From IMG/VR virus record IMGVR_UViG_2711768052_000004, positions 1-32,710 of that record: a DNA stretch of 32,710 nt. One strand, written 5' to 3'. Both the position numbers and the translations under genes were made by a program. This stretch comes from a virus. Its lineage: Duplodnaviria > Heunggongvirae > Uroviricota > Caudoviricetes. Under the pieces are notes generated by a model. The model made no database searches. It saw only the letters and a list, made by a program, of their open reading frames with translations, and had not been told where the DNA came from. Shown here in pieces: positions 5,413 to 26,923 of this stretch. The stretch's first letter is position 1. Each line of letters starts with the position of its first letter.

Positions 5413-6603
5413 TTAATTGCTGTTAACCGAGGTGACCAGATTTGCCAGGTATTTATCGGTAATACGCTGGCGCAGGGTCAGGTTTTCGAGAGGAGGCACC
5501 GGTGTATAGTCGTAGTCGATATACAGTTTTCCGGCCTTGAGGGTTTCCGCATCGTTGGATTCTTCGCTGAACCAGCATGAGCCATCCACGATATAGCCGT
5601 TTGTTTTCAGCTCACGGAATTTGGCATTGATGCCGTCAACGATGTCGCGAATCAGCGTTGCGGTGATGGGCTTGTCCACCGCCCACATGTGCGCCTCAGC
5701 CATCGTATCGGCCAGCACCTGCGCGGTGCGGGTGTAGTTTTCAAAGAGGAACAGCGGGTCATCAGAGCAGGTACGGTTACCCCAGAAGCGGAAACCGTCG
5801 CGGCGAATCAGCGTTGTGACACCTGACTCATTCAACAGGTCAGCATCGGTGCCGGACTCCTGCAAATCCCAGAATACAGAGGCACTGATGCCGGTAACAC
5901 CGTTTACCCCGACGTTGGACAGCGTTTTATGCCAGCCCTGCTCCTGGTCGATTTTAGCGCGCAGACCCAGCGCACGGGCGGTGGCATACGCGGTGGCGGT
6001 GGTACTGGTGACCGTATCCCATGCGAGGAAATCCGGCCAGATAACCATCAGTTCACGCTGGCTGAAATTCTGGCGGTAGGCTTTCACCTCGGAAATGGTT
6101 TTACAGCCCCATGCGCTGATATACCCGAAAGCGCGCAGCTTCTGACAGACTGATGCCAGTGCAACAGCCACCTCTTTGGTGTCCAGTCCCGGCACGCCGA
6201 GAATACGCGGTTTAACACCAGTTACCGACTCCGCCGCCAGCAGGGCTTTCAGTCCGGTGTACTGACCGTTTTCGTCGGTGGTGCCGATGATATTGGAAAC
6301 GGTCTGCGCGAGTTTCGTTTCCTCGTCGTCGCCGGTGCCGTCTTCCACACGCACAACAACGGTGACCGGTTTTGACTGGTCGGCGATGGCCTGCAACGAT
6401 GCCGCCAGCGTGCCTTTTTTACCGGCCTTTGCAATTGCACTCTGCACATTGGTAATCAGCACCGGTTTATTGAGGGGGAAGGTTTCCGCATCCGCATCGC
6501 TGGCCGTGCAGACCATGCCGACAATGGCAGTGGATACGGTGGAAATGACGCGGGTGCCGTCGTTAATCTCCAGCACCTGCACGCCGTGATGATAGTCACT
6601 CAT
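5413..6603 (-). CDS. FI: Contractile tail sheath protein gpFI (396 aa)
   Basis: ORF track gives 434 aa; the internal Met (MSDYHHGVQVLEINDG) has ATG at 6601-6603 with GGAG upstream, and 396 aa matches P2 FI as I recall it. Confidence 0.9.
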   Translation of the reverse strand: MSDYHHGVQVLEINDGTRVISTVSTAIVGMVCTASDADAETFPLNKPVLITNVQSAIAKAGKKGTLAASLQAIADQSKPVTVVVRVEDGTGDDEETKLAQTVSNIIGTTDENGQYTGLKALLAAESVTGVKPRILGVPGLDTKEVAVALASVCQKLRAFGYISAWGCKTISEVKAYRQNFSQRELMVIWPDFLAWDTVTSTTATAYATARALGLRAKIDQEQGWHKTLSNVGVNGVTGISASVFWDLQESGTDADLLNESGVTTLIRRDGFRFWGNRTCSDDPLFLFENYTRTAQVLADTMAEAHMWAVDKPITATLIRDIVDGINAKFRELKTNGYIVDGSCWFSEESNDAETLKAGKLYIDYDYTPVPPLENLTLRQRITDKYLANLVTSVNSN

Positions 6604-6698: not shown

Positions 6699-6727
6699 AT
6701 AAAGAAAAGGCGGACAATCCGCCCGCC
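6699..6727 (-). terminator. Rho-independent terminator downstream of the cargo gene and upstream of P_F
   Basis: Minus strand reads GGCGG-ATTGT-CCGCC followed by TTTTCTTTAT. Confidence 0.6.
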
Positions 6728-6787
6728 TGTCATGATTTGTACTCACTTATTTCCCGACTGACAATTTACATAGCCAAAACGCTATCA

Positions 6788-6799
6788 AATCTGACAGTC
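6788..6799. repeat. Left arm of inverted repeat flanking the G-FI cargo gene (AATCTGACAGTC)
   Basis: Exact reverse complement of 8714-8725; partner arms extend imperfectly for about 10 more bp. Confidence 0.6.
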
Positions 6800-6957
6800 T
6801 GCTTTGAGCGAGAAGCGGACTTTAGAGCTCATCATATATAACTACGATAACCAACATACTGGAATAAGTGTAGTTTACATCCTGTCTTTACTGCCCAAAA
6901 TTATTCTTATTGTTCTAGCTAATTATTTAGTGGTGAATAAATATCTTGTTAACATGT

Positions 6958-7029
6958 ACTAACTCAGCACAAGACTCCACTGAGTTAGTATATTTTTATA
7001 CTCCCCTGCGAATTTAGCAGGGAAGTATA
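6958..7029. other. Two adjacent stem-loops just 3' of the cargo gene
   Basis: ACTAACTCAG-N12-CTGAGTTAGT (6958-6989) followed by ATATTTTTATA on the plus strand; TATACTCCCCTGC-N7-GCAGGGAAGTATA (6997-7029, one mismatch). Confidence 0.5.
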
Positions 7030-7060
7030 TTACAAATTAATTTATAGTGGTTATATTAAT

Positions 7061-8500
7061 CTATGATTCACCATTTACCCTTTTATTCTCAGAGCAATAT
7101 AACCATTCAGAAACATTAATTATAGCCTCCGGATGCGAGTGTGTTGAGTGTATTAATATACCATCATTCTGTGGAGCAAATTTAATAACTTTATGATCTC
7201 CAGCTGGAGTTTCAGATGATGCAATAAAAACTTCCGGGCAAAATATTAATCGCAAATCTCCATAAGCTATGGCCTTAGCTACAGCCAACCAAAATGAAAA
7301 AATCGCAACTGGTATTGCTGCAATAAGTAAAACATGAGGAACATCCTTTGATGGTTTCAACCTTTGCCAAATGTGAGAAATAGAAGTTAATACAAAGCTT
7401 ACTAATAATACTATAATCCATGATTTTTCTTCAGGATAGAAGAACCATATTAATACACTCATGGAAATATAAAATAGGTAGCTTAAAACTGCTGACCAAT
7501 GTGTTAGCTTTTTATGACTTACTTGAGCTTTTTTTAGCTGGGAAAGAATTGCAAAACATCCTTCGTGAAGTGAACTTACAAATCTTAGGCCTGAATCGGC
7601 TTCATCACCAATTGCGTGATAAATTTCAACATTCCTAAAATCAACCGCTTCACAGTGCTCGCCACTCTCAACTTCCTGCAAAAATTCTTTTTTATATTTT
7701 TTGGAGATTATAATTTCTGCAAATATTGAAACAAAAAAAATTACTGCTGCATAATTAATATTATATAGATTCAAAGGTACAAAAAATACTGCAAGTAACA
7801 ATTGAATGGCCAAAGTTCCGCTAATATCAATAAGATTAATTAAAGCACCTGACGTTCTTTTTATCCTACGTCGAAAGATGAACGGTGGTGACAAAAGACA
7901 TACGCCTTGAATTTTTTTTGCAATATCACTTCGTAAATAAGACATTTCTCTTACAATAGCTGCCCCATGGCTATGTGCAATAATATAATTGTATTTTGCA
8001 GGAGAGTTATCAATATGCATTCCTAATTGATATGCCGCTTGTTTACGAGAGGATGCAGAGTTTTTGCCATCCCATTTAAATCGAGATATACCAATATTGG
8101 GATTCCTTGAGTTAATTGATTTGCACATTTTTGACTCAGGTTGTGTCCAAGATGCATTCGTCTCGAATGTTCCATGAACAAGGTGAACAATAACATCTTC
8201 TGATTCAGCATTAGCAATATCATTCACGGTTGTTGTTTTAGTCGAGTGGAATATAAAACGCCATGCCGTTGAAATCCCTTTTTGCCAGACAACATAATGG
8301 ACGAGTGCAACGATTAGTATTATTGCGACTGGAATAGTTACAAGGCCTATGGAAATAGTTTTAATTATATACTGAAGAACTCCTTTATTATGGGTGAAAA
8401 AATAATATGCTACAGAGGAAATAAAGAGCACTAGCATAGCCAACATTATCCCAGACAAGCCAAATAATATAATATATTTAATAAAATCGTGATTTCCCAT
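7061..8500 (-). CDS. Cargo protein (479 aa): polytopic membrane protein with a lipase/esterase-like domain; candidate defence effector
   Basis: Long AT-rich ORF in the G-FI slot; about seven hydrophobic helices by eye; soluble segment carries VHLVHGTFE and IIAHSHGAAIV (an A-x-S-x-G nucleophile-elbow-like pentapeptide); AAGG RBS upstream of ATG at 8498-8500. Confidence 0.8.
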   Translation of the reverse strand: MGNHDFIKYIILFGLSGIMLAMLVLFISSVAYYFFTHNKGVLQYIIKTISIGLVTIPVAIILIVALVHYVVWQKGISTAWRFIFHSTKTTTVNDIANAESEDVIVHLVHGTFETNASWTQPESKMCKSINSRNPNIGISRFKWDGKNSASSRKQAAYQLGMHIDNSPAKYNYIIAHSHGAAIVREMSYLRSDIAKKIQGVCLLSPPFIFRRRIKRTSGALINLIDISGTLAIQLLLAVFFVPLNLYNINYAAVIFFVSIFAEIIISKKYKKEFLQEVESGEHCEAVDFRNVEIYHAIGDEADSGLRFVSSLHEGCFAILSQLKKAQVSHKKLTHWSAVLSYLFYISMSVLIWFFYPEEKSWIIVLLVSFVLTSISHIWQRLKPSKDVPHVLLIAAIPVAIFSFWLAVAKAIAYGDLRLIFCPEVFIASSETPAGDHKVIKFAPQNDGILIHSTHSHPEAIINVSEWLYCSENKRVNGES

Positions 8501-8713
8501 TGAATTGCCTTCTATTTGGATAATCGATTATTTAACCTTTCGATTTTGTGGTTTCAACTTGAGGTTCAAACAAGAACATTGCTCGCTAGCAGTTATGAGT
8601 GAATCACTGTTAAGCGATCGTGATTTCAGCTATAGATGATCTGAACTACATGAATGCTGACTCACTAGCCTATTTTACATAATTGTGTGGATGTCTGCTA
8701 TTGGCACATAGCG

Positions 8714-8725
8714 GACTGTCAGATT
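8714..8725. repeat. Right arm of inverted repeat flanking the G-FI cargo gene (GACTGTCAGATT)
   Basis: Exact reverse complement of 6788-6799; lies in the G-to-cargo intergenic region. Confidence 0.6.
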
Positions 8726-8777
8726 AGGCTTTACTCTGTGCTATAGATATGTAAGCTCACACCAGAGATCATACAAC

Positions 8778-9305
8778 TTATTGCGGCATTTCCGGCCATT
8801 CGGGATTTGCAGGATCCACACGACTGACCAGAACGCTGTAGCGTTCCCATGCTTCCAGTCGGCTGCGTTCCTCATCCGTCGCCATATTCAGCCTGACAGC
8901 GCGTTCCAGCGGCAAAATCACGGATTCAGCTTCGGAAAGTAAAGCTGCCTTTTGTGATTCTGCCTGTTGCTCCTGTTCATCTGCCGTATAAATCCGCTTA
9001 ATCACGGCACCATCCTTAAACATCCATTTACCTGAGTCATCAGCACGTCGGTTGGAGGTAATATCAGGAACCTCGACAACGCTGAAACCTTCAGGGTTAA
9101 GCGTTGAAGCATCTCTGGTGATGCCGACAATTATATTATTCTCGTCGTAAACAATCTTTATCGTGTCTTCCTGAAAATTACTTACTTCCTCATACCAGTT
9201 TTTTCCCTCTTCGGACCATAACCAGATAACATCAAAATTTTTTGTCAGTTGATATTGGGCAACAGTTTTTGGATTACCCGCAGTAATATTTTTTAAATGC
9301 TGCAT
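8778..9305 (-). CDS. G: Tail fibre assembly protein gpG (175 aa)
   Basis: 175-aa ORF immediately downstream of H, as in P2. Confidence 0.88.
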
Positions 9306-13148: not shown

Positions 13149-13774
13149 AGAGGACTCCCGGTTGTGCCGCCGCTGTCGCCGGGGTGTTTATGGGTATGCA
13201 GTACCTTACCGTTTGATGAGAGTTCACCGCCGGTGTGTTCAATGTTGCCGCGCATCGTCCCGCCCTTCTGCACTTCCAGCGTGCCGGTAATCAGCCTGTT
13301 GGTGCAGACCACCTCCGGTGTGTCCAGGGTGATGCGGGTTGATGCTTTCACCATGACCACCGGCACCGTGGCAGTAACAGAATCAGAAGCCGTCACGCTG
13401 GCCGTTTTAATTCCGCTTACCATGAGTGCACTGGTTTCGGGTTCATATTCAATCACCGCCCCGTCAGGGAAACGGATATGCAGGGCATCCGCCGACGCAG
13501 ACGGCGCGGGGTTATCGCCGGAATAAATCCCCGGCAGAACGAACGCCGTGTCGAGTTCACCACCCACGGCCAGAATCAGCACCTGTTCCCCCACGGAAGG
13601 TGCCCACCATGTGCGCGAACGCCCGGCGCGATGGGTCAGCCACTGAAGCCAGTCGGTGCACATGCCGCCGGTCTGCACACGGCAGCGACCGGCATTAAGG
13701 TCGGTTTCGACGATAATGCCAGTGCGAATCATATTGCGTATAAAGCGAAGAATTTCATTGTATTGTGCATTCAT
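13145..13774 (-). CDS. V: Baseplate spike/hub protein gpV (209 aa from the chosen start)
   Basis: ORF track gives 235 aa; the Met of MNAQYNEILRFIRNMIRTGIIVETDLNAGRC (ATG at 13772-13774) matches the conserved gpV N-terminal region; stop overlaps W start. Confidence 0.85.
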   Translation of the reverse strand: MNAQYNEILRFIRNMIRTGIIVETDLNAGRCRVQTGGMCTDWLQWLTHRAGRSRTWWAPSVGEQVLILAVGGELDTAFVLPGIYSGDNPAPSASADALHIRFPDGAVIEYEPETSALMVSGIKTASVTASDSVTATVPVVMVKASTRITLDTPEVVCTNRLITGTLEVQKGGTMRGNIEHTGGELSSNGKVLHTHKHPGDSGGTTGSPL

Positions 13775-13860
13775 TCGATAATAATGATTCTGTACAATCT
13801 CGAAGTAAATCACACCACGATTTCTGGTGCACAGAACAACAAGGGACAACAAAATCCATT
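13775..13860. promoter_or_regulatory. Compressed divergent control region: expected late promoter P_V plus the cargo-gene promoter
   Basis: 86-bp spacer between divergently oriented V and the plus-strand cargo gene; plus-strand TACAAT at 13796-13801; P_V placement is positional inference from P2. Confidence 0.35.
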
Positions 13861-14934
13861 ATGAGTACTTACTTTTTCTCGTCAGAAACAATGAAAGAAT
13901 TGTTCAAAGATTATCTGGTCTTTTTGAACACGCTGACTCCCAGCACAAACTTTGAATCAAACAGAAACAAAATAATTGCTCAAGCAATAAACTTCATTTC
14001 CGAAAACCCTGAAGATTGGGACAAAAAATCCCAGTACAACATTGCTATGATTGGCGACACCTTTAAAAGTTTCTTAAGAGAGAAGGGAGAAGATAACAAC
14101 AGCATCAACCTTATATTCACTTGCTTTTTTAGATTTATCATTGAACCAAGCATTCTCTCTCCGGAAATAGAGTCTCACTTTTCACCACTAAGAACCATCA
14201 AGGATTTTGCTCTGTATAACTATAATGAATTCGATGAGCGGAGCAGAGCACAGATAGACTTTTCTCTTAGAGAACTGCCATTAGCAATGGTTAAAGAAGT
14301 TTTAAGCTCCAGCAATGTTGACACATATAAAAAATACATTGATAGTTTAAACGAAGGGCGTCAATTTTTCGAAAAGTGCGACTCCTTCTTAAAGGAGCAA
14401 CATGCCAAAATAGAGTCAATTAAAGAGTCATTAAAAGGGTATGAGGTCGCATTTAATTTTGTTGGATTGTTTGAAGGCTTTAATTCACTTGGCAAAAAGA
14501 AAGAAAGTGAAATCATGCTATCAAGAATAATTCTTATCATCTTGGCTATAATCATTCCCTCCCCGCTGATATACTATGGAATGCATAAATTACCAGCTCT
14601 CGAAACGACAAATGCTGCCACATATTTTATGTCAGCACTACCTTTTGCATCAGTTACATTGATTTTCATGTATTACTTTAGAGTTGTACTGCTAAATCAT
14701 ATATCGTTACGAACTCAGATTATGCAAATAGAACTCAGAAAGAGCCTTTGTCAGTTCATTCAGAGTTATAGCGACTATTCCTCAGAGATAAGGAAAAACA
14801 ATCCGGAAGCGCTTTCAAAATTCGAAGACGTAGTATTTTCAAACATCATGCTATCCGATGATAAGATACCATCTACATTTGATGGCATTGAGCAAATAGC
14901 ATCGTTAATCAATTCATTAAAAAATGGAAAGTAA
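13861..14934 (+). CDS. Cargo protein (357 aa from ATG 13861): soluble N-terminal domain plus two predicted TM helices; function unknown
   Basis: AT-rich ORF on the opposite strand to the flanking late genes, in the S-V slot; hydrophobic IMLSRIILIILAIIIPSPLIYYGM and ATYFMSALPFASVTLIFMYYFRVVLL; start is uncertain (in-frame ATGs at 13765, 13861, 13891). Confidence 0.75.
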   Translation: MSTYFFSSETMKELFKDYLVFLNTLTPSTNFESNRNKIIAQAINFISENPEDWDKKSQYNIAMIGDTFKSFLREKGEDNNSINLIFTCFFRFIIEPSILSPEIESHFSPLRTIKDFALYNYNEFDERSRAQIDFSLRELPLAMVKEVLSSSNVDTYKKYIDSLNEGRQFFEKCDSFLKEQHAKIESIKESLKGYEVAFNFVGLFEGFNSLGKKKESEIMLSRIILIILAIIIPSPLIYYGMHKLPALETTNAATYFMSALPFASVTLIFMYYFRVVLLNHISLRTQIMQIELRKSLCQFIQSYSDYSSEIRKNNPEALSKFEDVVFSNIMLSDDKIPSTFDGIEQIASLINSLKNGK

Positions 14935-24409: not shown

Positions 24410-25411
24410 TTATAATAATTTGTCCAGCCTAGCTGAAACAATACCTAGAACAACTGTTGAAACTATATTTACCACCACTCTTAAAATACTCTTCTTTCGC
24501 TTCTTACTATATTCATCATACAACCTCTCATCACCCTTATTTAATACAATGTACGATGCTGGAGTATAACCATCAATTAATCTCTCTAGGCCTTCACCTA
24601 AATGCTCCGCTAACAATGGGATAATAGAAAACGCACCAAGAAAGAGCATTAAAAATTTTACTAACCTTTCTTTATCACCAATATCAATATATTCACCAAC
24701 ATTGTACAGTGCATAACTTAAAATCAATATAGAAAAAGAAAACCGCATAATCAGTGGAATTAAATACGATATCCTTTGAGCTTGCTGTATCAATGGTATT
24801 TTGTTTGTAACTCTTTGACATCCTTCAACCCATTCTTTAAATGCTTCGATAAAACCTCTAGCCACTACATAATCAGCATATTCAACAACTATTTCTGCTG
24901 AACTGGTGAGCATGAATGCAACAAAACGCCCCCTAATGAAAGGTGGTGCATCTTCTTCCATTTCTTTCTGCATAGCAATTCTTGATGCTAATTTAACAGT
25001 AACTTCATAGTGGTTAGGTAATGATGCCCCTGTCGATAAAATTGCAAAGTTATATTTTAAAATTACACTAATTGTTGGACTACTTCCCGCACTACTCGAC
25101 ATTGCAAACTTATCAAAAGAGGTAAACTGTTCCTTTCTATCTTTTGAATGTAAAATAGTTACCGTTTCATTTTTCGATATAATATTATGAACATCACACA
25201 ATTGATTTATTTTTTGATGAACGCTTCTTATCTCATCGATATTTATAAGTAAATTCTCAGAGGTTCTCTGCCTTATTGTTTCTGTTGTTCCCGTTATATG
25301 TTGATAAATTTGCTGATAAATACGAATGCTAGTATTAATATCCCGAGAAGCAGGTAACCCACTATTAACCCCATTATTTTTTTCATTTGACTCATCAATT
25401 ATAATACTCAT
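24410..25411 (-). CDS. Cargo protein (333 aa): soluble N-terminal domain plus three C-terminal TM helices; function unknown; candidate defence effector
   Basis: AT-rich ORF between the cos-like site and Q; AGGA 5 nt upstream of ATG at 25409-25411; hydrophobic ISYLIPLIMRFSFSILILSYALY, LVKFLMLFLGAFSIIPLLAEHL, ILRVVVNIVSTVVLGIVSA. Confidence 0.8.
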   Translation of the reverse strand: MSIIIDESNEKNNGVNSGLPASRDINTSIRIYQQIYQHITGTTETIRQRTSENLLINIDEIRSVHQKINQLCDVHNIISKNETVTILHSKDRKEQFTSFDKFAMSSSAGSSPTISVILKYNFAILSTGASLPNHYEVTVKLASRIAMQKEMEEDAPPFIRGRFVAFMLTSSAEIVVEYADYVVARGFIEAFKEWVEGCQRVTNKIPLIQQAQRISYLIPLIMRFSFSILILSYALYNVGEYIDIGDKERLVKFLMLFLGAFSIIPLLAEHLGEGLERLIDGYTPASYIVLNKGDERLYDEYSKKRKKSILRVVVNIVSTVVLGIVSARLDKLL

Positions 25412-25890: not shown

Positions 25891-26820
25891 TCAAACCAGG
25901 CTTTTGCCTTGCTTCATTTTTTTAGATGAGTCTAAAAATTTGAAATTATCATTAGATGAAAATATTCTTTCTGCGGTATGCCGAATGACTGAAGTATTGA
26001 AGACCGCAGCCTGCTCCTCATTACAACTGAATACACCCTCATGACCATCAAACTCGCCCGCCAAAAGAAGGTTTTTTGATACTGGGAACAAAACTAAAGT
26101 GTCTTTTACACCAAACCCGGGGGAATAAGGGCCTCGTGCTAATTCAGGATTAGTCCACATTAAGCAAACTGGGTTATCTGAAGTTATAAATGACCCTTGC
26201 CCATCAGATATGGTCATAAGTGACCAGTTGCGTTGATGCAACAACTTGGTGATAACAGGTACACATTTCATTTCCATATCTATCATGAACTCTCTGATTA
26301 CATTGATTTCGAAATTATCCCCATCCACAAAATTTTTAATTTTTTCGTAAGCGAGATCATATGGCAAAGACTCACCCATTTCTTTCTCATAAGCTAATTT
26401 ACAATCGTCCCAACGCTCAGCCGAACTAACTGAGGATTTCATGATAAACTTTGCTATTTGTTTCAATGGAGATGATAAATGTTCTCGCTGAGCAGGCGTA
26501 CGTATTGCCAATAAGGAAATAAACTCCAGAATAACATCTTTGGTTTCGCCTGAAAACTCGCCCCCCTCCTCAAGTTTTCTTAAATGAGTAGCGACACTGC
26601 CTTCAAACTCTGCAAGAGAACTCTCGAGATAGTTTGGGTCAACTCCATCCAATTCTAATCGGTTGAAATCTCTAACCCCCCCGACATTGCGAGTATTACT
26701 CTCAAAAGTTTTGCGCTCCTTTAAATCTATTACAGTTAATTTTGATTTTTTCCCCCCATTACTTGTAAACCCTTTCAAATAACATTGGGATAAAAAATGA
26801 TGATGCCTTGCAACACTCAT
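25891..26820 (-). CDS. Cargo protein (309 aa from ATG 26820) with DUF4238-like N-terminal motif; candidate single-gene defence protein
   Basis: AT-rich ORF between A and the cos-like site (the P2 tin/old slot); N-terminus MSVARHHHFLSQCYLKGFT fits the H-x3-Q-x-YL-x2-F signature I associate with DUF4238; GGAG 6 nt upstream of the chosen ATG. Confidence 0.75.
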   Translation of the reverse strand: MSVARHHHFLSQCYLKGFTSNGGKKSKLTVIDLKERKTFESNTRNVGGVRDFNRLELDGVDPNYLESSLAEFEGSVATHLRKLEEGGEFSGETKDVILEFISLLAIRTPAQREHLSSPLKQIAKFIMKSSVSSAERWDDCKLAYEKEMGESLPYDLAYEKIKNFVDGDNFEINVIREFMIDMEMKCVPVITKLLHQRNWSLMTISDGQGSFITSDNPVCLMWTNPELARGPYSPGFGVKDTLVLFPVSKNLLLAGEFDGHEGVFSCNEEQAAVFNTSVIRHTAERIFSSNDNFKFLDSSKKMKQGKSLV

Positions 26821-26923
26821 ACTCAGCTCCGTTATGGCTATAATCGCATAAATAATAAGCACTTATATTGCAATCATCTAGTTAAATACACAATATTTAT
26901 GACTCCGAAATTTCATTAAATCA

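Follow-up and report, generated by a model that had tools for sequence, protein, structure and literature searches.

A putative membrane serine hydrolase with a split alpha/beta-hydrolase fold as a candidate anti-phage cargo protein of a P2-like prophage

The viral DNA analyzed here (IMG/VR record IMGVR_UViG_2711768052_000004, positions 1 to 32,710; hereafter, the window, meaning this whole 32,710-nucleotide stretch) is a P2-like prophage whose genes lie mostly on the minus strand, and at positions 7,061 to 8,500 it carries a gene for a 479-amino-acid protein in which the pieces of a predicted lipase-type alpha/beta-hydrolase alternate with hydrophobic helices. The reading that we favor, to which we assign a probability of about 0.48, is that this protein is an inner-membrane serine hydrolase that would hydrolyze lipids upon phage infection, thereby aborting the infection and shielding the lysogen population. 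It is a plausible candidate for a new single-gene anti-phage protein, and the support for this role is associative, comprising the location of the gene in the fun-slot hotspot, the defense systems that neighbor its homologs, the presence of a DUF4238 gene in the same prophage, and the abundance of defense genes among the cargo bounded by the same hairpins.

The window encodes GPD, tape measure, tube, sheath, tail fiber, baseplate, capsid, terminase, portal, GPA, and integrase proteins. Because the neighbors of the hydrolase open reading frame (ORF) are a tail-fiber assembly gene of the Caudo_TAP family and a tail sheath gene (Table 1), the slot that it occupies corresponds to P2 G-FI, also known as Z/fun. 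The GC content is 0.33-0.36 over positions 7001-8500 compared to ~0.57 in the flanking tail genes, and the AT-rich ORF of 479 amino acids reported between these two genes in the first-pass annotation is real, with both neighbors identified through Pfam. Like other cargo of this slot, the gene lies between G and FI, is AT-rich, and varies among phages. On the sheath side, the true ATG of the sheath gene is at 6603, and a terminator-like hairpin belonging to the phage backbone lies beside that gene at 6708-6728. The same annotation was right that the slot is an anti-phage hotspot but wrong in attributing this to Rousset et al. (2022), who surveyed the gpA-gpQ (old/tin) hotspot of P2. It was Vassallo et al. 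(2022) who described the fun locus as a second defense-enriched P2 hotspot, unnoted, according to those authors, by earlier analysis; three of their PD systems originate from the G-FI hotspot, and later papers concur with their view of the fun locus.

The ORF represents more than a chance reading frame, given that it has 58 homologous clusters in a word-indexed search, invariant motifs, and a ratio of nonsynonymous to synonymous substitution rates (dN/dS) of 0.11-0.25 when compared with five homologs. The gene is under purifying selection. The homologous clusters derive from Enterobacterales, Burkholderiales, and Chromobacterium, and nearly all encode proteins of 460-500 amino acids, the exceptions being three of 329-434 and two of 550-575. 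In an exhaustive profile search, the tight family comprises ~14 clusters at 50% identity and sits within a very large superfamily, for which 2,637 representatives are found at E<1e-10, rising to 5,470 at E<1e-3.

Several lines of evidence converge on an alpha/beta-hydrolase. The AlphaFold2 model of the protein (predicted local distance difference test score 85.6; predicted template modeling score 0.80) contains the central beta-sheet and helix core of this fold, Foldseek matches it to Bacillus subtilis LipA at 20-23% identity, and profile matches to PDB entries extend over exactly the HGT...AHS region, so the fold that had been proposed from motifs in the first-pass annotation is now seen in both structure prediction and profile matches. 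The two motifs in question, VHLVHGTFE (residues 104-112) and IIAHSHGAAIV (residues 173-183), are indeed present, and the HG oxyanion motif and the AHSHG nucleophile elbow within them are invariant in 30/30 family members. In the model, the elbow (A175-H176-S177-H178-G179) follows the strand at 170-176 and precedes the helix at 178-189, while two further invariant residues, the candidate acid D299 and the candidate base H451, follow the strands at 291-296 and 437-441, respectively. The oxyanion motif is thus modeled after beta3, the nucleophile after beta5, the acid after beta7, and the histidine after beta8, which is the canonical arrangement. HGTF, AHSH, GDEA, H451, and A175 are each invariant in all 30 family members, and H109-G110-T111, H176-S177-H178, D299-E300-A301, and H451 are also invariant in 13 of 13 sequences down to 19% identity. 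Because these residues are invariant and each follows its canonical strand, an alpha/beta fold with intact Ser-Asp-His machinery is well supported, with Ser177, Asp299, and His451 as the candidate catalytic triad and HG as the predicted oxyanion motif. The modeled catalytic core is a minimal lipase/esterase-type alpha/beta-hydrolase fold. No structure in PDB or BFVD spans the whole architecture in the Foldseek search (TM-score to the query ≤0.24), and nothing there covers the membrane part.

The protein is only loosely placed among named families. Its best Pfam match is Ser_hydrolase at 19.0 bits, under the cut-off of 22, and the other alpha/beta-hydrolase matches are also sub-threshold and centered on the AHSHG region. 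Scanning of 30 family members returned weak generic matches only, the commonest being Hydrolase_4 in 15 of them. The profile comparison with alpha/beta-hydrolase families that the first-pass annotation had proposed therefore agrees with the fold in a generic sense (Ser_hydrolase, Hydrolase_4), but no match exceeds the gathering threshold among the families considered, namely Ser_hydrolase, Hydrolase_4, Abhydrolase_1/6, DUF676, PGAP1, and the lipase families. Scans of the protein against PHROGs and NCBIfam gave noise-level matches only.

The membrane helices of the protein are arranged in a more unusual way than the first-pass annotation described. Seven hydrophobic 19-mers are found at residues 10-28, 49-67, 223-241, 248-266, 336-354, 360-378, and 390-408, which fits the earlier count of two transmembrane (TM) helices plus about five more, but these helices lie inside the hydrolase fold rather than after a soluble domain. 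The predicted hydrolase domain is non-contiguous, with the order two TM helices, core A, two TM helices, core B, three hydrophobic helices, and core C, and D299 is located beyond the first TM insertion and H451 beyond the second. Conservation of the helix at 390-413 is 0.74, equal to that of the catalytic core, compared to 0.38-0.47 for TM1 and TM3-TM6 and 0.58 for TM2, and this helix is probably not a full membrane span and probably forms part of the substrate-access machinery. Loops rich in lysine and arginine border the hydrolase pieces, such as RRRIKR ahead of TM3, and distant relatives, which lack a signal peptide, open with the HGT strand itself; for both of these reasons, we place the hydrolase pieces in the cytoplasm.

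In the mechanism that we propose, the hydrolase pieces would lie on the cytoplasmic side, with the active site apposed to the membrane, and the membrane helices would thereby act as both lid and substrate channel. The enzyme would attack a membrane lipid at an ester bond, in the simplest case that of an inner-leaflet phospholipid, making it a phospholipase A or lysophospholipase. Its activity would be held back until an infecting phage disturbs the membrane domain or the conserved extracytoplasmic loop, and lipid hydrolysis would then collapse the membrane barrier, resulting in abortive infection. The lysogen population would in this way be guarded from competing phages, as with other cargo of the P2 Z/fun slot.

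The same slot and topology could also be explained by superinfection exclusion, in which a constitutive inner-membrane protein would block entry of the incoming genome, either sterically or by local remodeling of lipids or lipoproteins, and the cell would survive. P2 Z/fun acts against T5, and proteins of the SieA and Imm type are precedents for exclusion. Consistent with this explanation, the gene shares its slot with P2 fun, its product is a polytopic inner-membrane protein in which the loop of the N-terminal TM hairpin is conserved and predicted to be extracytoplasmic, and in varied phage types it is frequently found right after tail-fiber or tail-fiber assembly genes, a place typical for exclusion or receptor-related morons. 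We nevertheless regard exclusion as unlikely. The full candidate triad is strictly conserved, which argues that catalysis rather than mere presence is the function; copies occur on plasmids, integrative and conjugative elements (ICEs), and chromosomal islands, where exclusion in the style of a prophage is less expected; and no homology to P2 Z/fun was detected by tblastn against phage records, the gene in the P2 slot being an unrelated ORF of 299 amino acids.

Returning to the proposed defense role, the gene moves as part of a small module of ~1.92 kb (window ~6797-8717). Cassettes with nearly the same end-points and 84-99% nucleotide identity are present in six backgrounds, namely a P2-like prophage, the end of a lambdoid prophage, an IncFIB plasmid, a Scandinavium chromosome, a Pectobacterium ICE, and a Proteus island. 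In addition, the S-V slot of a P2-like viral contig (locus L027) houses a homolog of 72% identity with the same boundary motifs on its flanks. A P2-specific gene was ruled out both by this homolog and by the absence of nearby P2 structural genes at all 23 loci of other genera. No neighbor gene is conserved in the ~20 contexts examined (~15 distinct), and two small ORFs of the cassette considered as a hidden partner gene, an antisense hydrophobic ORF of 52 amino acids (6804-6962) and a leader ORF of 44 amino acids, are both broken in cassettes of 84-87% identity. Since neither the neighbors nor the small ORFs are conserved, sequence comparison indicates that the hydrolase gene is a single-gene unit and the sole cargo of the cassette. 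The possibility of a structured RNA in the conserved 5' leader was unsupported, with no compensatory pairs and no Rfam matches, and a consensus scan of the gene strand over 8501-8777 found no sigma-70 promoter. In Escherichia coli Rb-50 (L026, 5430-5606) and Proteus mirabilis (L013, 6092-6715), the cassette directly follows truncated fragments of tail-fiber assembly or phage-tail C-terminal sequence, which suggests that it was carried along with pieces of tail-fiber modules in recombination between phage types.

The content of the cassette also bears on whether the gene might encode an addiction or competitor-killing toxin, an intrinsically toxic hydrolase that stabilizes its mobile element. 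Toxicity is plausible for a lipase-like enzyme embedded in the membrane, and the gene invariably lies on or beside mobile DNA. However, the cassette contains no conserved antitoxin or immunity gene or small ORF, the protein has no secretion signal, the prediction places its catalytic domain in the cytoplasm of the producing cell, and no link to a type VI secretion system or other means of toxin delivery appeared in any context examined. A toxin of this kind is accordingly a very improbable explanation.

A recurrent theme of these contexts, and one that supports the abortive-infection reading, is proximity to known defense systems. In Pectobacterium (L015, 9009-11673; 85% identity), the hydrolase gene adjoins a Gabija pair in convergent orientation, and the homolog of Curvibacter (L031, 8879-11993; 39% identity) does the same; each pair consists of a GajA-like protein (AAA_15/AAA_21 and OLD-TOPRIM) and a UvrD-like GajB. 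The recurrence of this arrangement in two very distant hosts may be due either to chance in what the islands contain or to a functional link. In Proteus, the homolog adjoins a CBASS operon (for anti-phage signaling based on cyclic oligonucleotides), in a Dickeya island a NACHT NTPase of 1,633 amino acids is encoded two genes downstream (~1.6 kb), in Burkholderia pseudomallei the homolog lies within a TIR/HsdR/helicase island, and in Scandinavium SNIPE/T5orf172 is found near the gene. A distant superfamily member in a Verrucomicrobia metagenome-assembled genome (MAG; L032, 2821-8278), the 425-amino-acid protein P0086, ends an HsdR-HsdS type I restriction-modification operon, and its gene overlaps the HsdS stop by 4 nt, which suggests translational coupling with the restriction-modification system. 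Recurrent co-localization with known defense systems on mobile elements is thus observed, as an anecdotal pattern drawn from ~15 contexts rather than a genome-wide statistic.

The boundaries of the cassette provide a further connection to defense. They are formed by two related 24-nt hairpins, with consensus GTCYGCTnnGTGCCAnnAGCRGAC for type A and GTCCGCTnnTCGCTCAnnGCRGAC for type B (noted as well at loci L033, L034, L035, L155, and L036-L154), and the hairpin pattern occurs exactly twice in the window compared to 0.02 occurrences expected by chance. P2, P2_AC1, L-413C, and phage 899 carry unrelated cargo bounded by these hairpins, and they share the outer flanks AATCTGACAG and CTGTCAGATT as well. 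When type B was searched for by exact matching of a pattern with 20 specified bases, it was found in at least 119 viral contigs, and around these sites ~35 nt of the backbone side are conserved while the cargo side is not. Among the matches listed, P2 G-FI junctions account for ~15 of the 122 type-B sites, a type-A hairpin is present 0.4-4.3 kb upstream at 74 of the 122, and the 115 ORFs adjoining type-B hairpins are extremely diverse, falling into 88 clusters, and are mostly AT-rich. At least 19 of 72 cargo representatives (at least 26%) match PADLOC defense models, including PD-T7-1, PD-T7-5, RT-protease, RT-Toprim, RT-TIR, HEC-06, SAVED-HNH, and a 4TM effector, and Pfam matches add the HEPN, SIR2, GmrSD, and YobI families.

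The hairpins are also arranged with respect to one another, with the next type-A hairpin beginning 16-18 nt past type B in 20 of 28 cases to give a junction of ~66 nt between tandem cassettes; in phage 899, there is a clean two-cassette array with such a B-16/18 nt-A junction. At 1-3 copies each, at least 865 of the 5,426 E. coli genomes contain this junction, which carries no annotation and belongs to no Rfam family. A genome-wide repeat of the repetitive extragenic palindromic (REP) or enterobacterial repetitive intergenic consensus (ERIC) type was ruled out, as there are only 1-3 copies in each E. coli genome having any, and plain terminators of the cargo genes are unlikely, as T-runs are absent from the hairpins, which are oriented with the backbone even where the cargo is on the other strand. 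In the S-V slot of L027 (7650-7880), the type-A region is split by an insertion of ~190 nt with the inverted repeat GGCTGTGTGAAAAC / GTTTTCACACAGCC on its flanks; this insertion looks like a small element resembling a miniature inverted-repeat transposable element within the boundary hairpin. It is possible that the hairpin pair is a cassette-exchange or portable-homology element. A 2026 study of P2/P4 defense repertoires describes the mechanism by which defense cargo is exchanged with other mobile elements as unknown and mentions no such elements. Our literature searches found no account of hairpin-bounded defense cassettes, although the boundary repeats may have been described before.

Several observations weigh against the favored reading. 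If the hydrolase is a single folded domain, at least one of the three hydrophobic helices found between alphaE and beta8 must stop short of crossing the membrane, as three full spans ahead of core C would place it on the wrong side of the membrane. Furthermore, the predicted fold indicates a serine hydrolase and not specifically a phospholipase, and a thioesterase, protein deacylase, or other esterase would be equally compatible with it. No PADLOC-DB v2.0.0 model is matched by the protein, the sole match being Cas6 at E = 0.037, which is noise; a comparison of this kind had been proposed in the first-pass annotation. No homolog was found by tblastn among 50,697 deposited phage genomes, P2 included, and literature searches for an alpha/beta-hydrolase defense protein with TM helices and for the accessions of the protein yielded nothing relevant. 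Finally, the Kluyvera and Paraburkholderia homologs are lone insertions among metabolic and housekeeping genes without a defense neighbor, and the hairpin-bounded cargo includes ArsB/ArsC, a major facilitator superfamily transporter, and thymidylate synthase, none of which is a defense gene.

The last two of these observations would also fit a reading in which the gene is instead a moron for fitness or lysogenic conversion, encoding a membrane esterase or lipase for envelope remodeling, ester detoxification, colonization, or virulence. Membrane-anchored alpha/beta-hydrolases with housekeeping roles in lipid remodeling are known, such as Pseudomonas aeruginosa PlaF and PGAP1/Bst1. The size of the superfamily, with its 2,637 representatives, might be explained by a general role in physiology, some copies stand alone among metabolic genes, and arsenic resistance genes and transporters travel between the same hairpins. 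On the other hand, the gene has a very patchy distribution (present in 2 of the 5,426 complete E. coli genomes, at 7 loci across 185,579 species representatives, and on one plasmid), its composition is AT-rich and foreign, near-identical copies are found in six mobile backgrounds, and adjacency to defense systems recurs in Gammaproteobacteria, Betaproteobacteria, and the Verrucomicrobia MAG. Patchiness, foreign composition, mobility, and defense adjacency are hallmarks of defense genes rather than of housekeeping lipid enzymes, and we consider a fitness role to have a low probability.

If the proposed defense role is correct, a single protein would constitute the system, with a membrane domain and a lipase-type core interleaved in one fold, and the small set of membrane-acting defense proteins would be enlarged. 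As the protein is small, has a clear candidate triad, and is available with its native regulatory flanks, this role is directly testable. A broader and rather doubtful proposition is that the protein would be the first characterized member of a large, unnamed superfamily of TM-interrupted alpha/beta-hydrolases (~2,600 clusters at E<1e-10) acting as self-contained membrane sensor-effectors of antiviral immunity, in which the membrane domain both senses attack and gates access to lipid, and that the A and B hairpins with their B-16/18 nt-A junctions would constitute an undescribed cassette-exchange system. Were this true, the exchange system would explain how defense cargo moves among P2-like hotspots, other prophages, plasmids, and ICEs in the absence of homologous genes at its flanks. 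The hairpin pair provides both a testable candidate for a mechanism of cargo exchange and a sequence tag with which to mine new cargo genes.

Table 1. Coordinates in the window of the hydrolase gene, its predicted protein segments, the cassette boundaries, and the genes bordering the slot.
Feature	Position	Strand	Details
Hydrolase ORF	7061..8500	-	ATG start; 479 amino acids; putative polytopic membrane serine hydrolase with a predicted split alpha/beta-hydrolase fold
N-terminal TM hairpin, residues 10-67	8300..8473	-	TM1 10-28, TM2 49-67; H37, G40, and K47 of the connecting loop at least 90% conserved
Core segment A, residues 101-215	7856..8200	-	beta3 to beta6; H109-G110-T111-F112 oxyanion motif, A175-H176-S177-H178-G179 elbow; Ser177 codon 7970-7972
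TM3-TM4 hairpin, residues 223-266	7703..7834	-	After beta6, the canonical lid position; RRRIKR just before, a positive-inside signal
Core segment B, residues 291-333	7502..7630	-	beta7, invariant G298-D299-E300-A301 (D299 codon 7604-7606), helix alphaE
TM5-TM6, residues 336-378	7367..7495	-	alphaE runs straight into TM5; helix 300-354 in the model
Seventh hydrophobic helix, residues 390-413	7262..7333	-	Conservation 0.74, core-like
Core segment C, residues 414-470	7091..7261	-	G414-D415, S429-E430-T431-P432, beta8, H451 codon 7148-7150, alphaF with W466
Conserved non-coding 5' leader	8501..8692	-	Shine-Dalgarno GAAGG 7 nt ahead of the ATG
Conserved non-coding 3' region	6821..7060	-	GC hairpin CCCTGCTAAATTCGCAGGGG (7003-7022); inverted repeat 6951-6996
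Type-A hairpin, 5' cassette end	8693..8716	.	Gene strand GTCCGCTAT-GTGCCA-ATAGCAGAC, loop GTGCCA
Type-B hairpin, 3' cassette end	6797..6820	.	Gene strand GTCCGCTT-CTCGCTCA-AAGCAGAC, loop TCGCTCA
Outer flank ...CTGTCAGATT (gene strand)	6788..6796	.	Common to P2-like phages with other cargo; inverted repeat with 8717-8725
Outer flank AATCTGACAG... (gene strand)	8717..8725	.	Common to P2, P2_AC1, L-413C, and phage 899, directly after gene G
Tail-fiber assembly gene (P2 G), slot boundary	8778..9305	-	Caudo_TAP, E 4.8e-35; upstream of the hydrolase ORF
Tail sheath gene (P2 FI), slot boundary	5413..6603	-	Phage_sheath_1, E 1.2e-33; downstream of the hydrolase ORF

Cargo is also present elsewhere in the window. 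The gpA-gpQ (old/tin) hotspot encodes a DUF4238 protein at 25891-26862 on the minus strand (PADLOC DUF4238-Pers, 725 bits; Pfam E 5e-39), and the DUF4238 system, which acts against T7 with a single gene, was validated by Rousset et al. (2022). Adjoining it in the same hotspot is a second AT-rich ORF of 333 amino acids (24410-25411, minus strand; GC ~0.31-0.34), which has no Pfam or PADLOC match. A third AT-rich island (13765-14934, plus strand; GC 0.33-0.36) lies between the tail-completion (S-like) and baseplate V genes, the S-V slot of this prophage, and holds an ORF of 389 amino acids on the opposite strand, likewise with no Pfam or PADLOC match.

Among characterized enzymes, the predicted core most resembles the family I.4 lipases, such as B. 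subtilis LipA and Lip_vut1 (PDB 6nkc), with which it shares the A-x-S-x-G pentapeptide and a minimal, lid-less core. Those lipases are secreted soluble enzymes of ~19 kDa, however, whereas the protein described here has 479 amino acids and lacks a signal peptide, and four to five of its seven hydrophobic helices are embedded in the fold; it also falls within no lipase family of Pfam. In its proposed action, the closest parallel is CapV, the patatin-like effector of CBASS, since in both cases hydrolysis of membrane phospholipids triggered by infection is proposed to kill or arrest the cell. Effectors of the CapV type also inhabit the same kinds of islands, and in one case a homolog of the hydrolase lies immediately next to a CBASS operon. 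CapV, a soluble enzyme of the patatin fold, uses a Ser-Asp dyad and is activated by a cyclic nucleotide from a partner cyclase. In contrast, the protein described here is predicted to be an integral membrane alpha/beta-hydrolase with a candidate Ser-Asp-His triad, and because it has no partner gene, any sensor would have to be built in.

The first-pass annotation had also raised the possibility of identity with the hydrolase-plus-transmembrane anti-T7 system of Rousset et al. (2022), for which those authors propose abortive infection. The two have in common a hydrolase tied to membrane helices and a location on an element of the P2/P4 family, but this resemblance is superficial. That system pairs a haloacid dehalogenase (HAD)-like hydrolase with a separate TM protein in the P4 psu-int hotspot, whereas here there is a single gene with a predicted alpha/beta fold in the P2 G-FI slot, and the protein has no HAD match in Pfam and no PADLOC match. 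The identity is refuted by both fold and gene architecture, and we give it virtually no credence. With P2 Z/fun and the other cargo of the G-FI slot, the gene shares its location, its AT-rich foreign character, the boundary hairpins, and the flanks, whereas the proteins themselves are unrelated, as there is no sequence similarity between the hydrolase and either P2 Z/fun, the PD systems modeled in PADLOC, or the slot cargo of P2, P2_AC1, L-413C, and phage 899. Membrane-anchored alpha/beta-hydrolases such as PlaF, PGAP1/Bst1, and ABHD6 have TM helices before or after a contiguous catalytic domain. In the protein described here, by comparison, the predicted TM hairpins interrupt the hydrolase fold at two internal positions.

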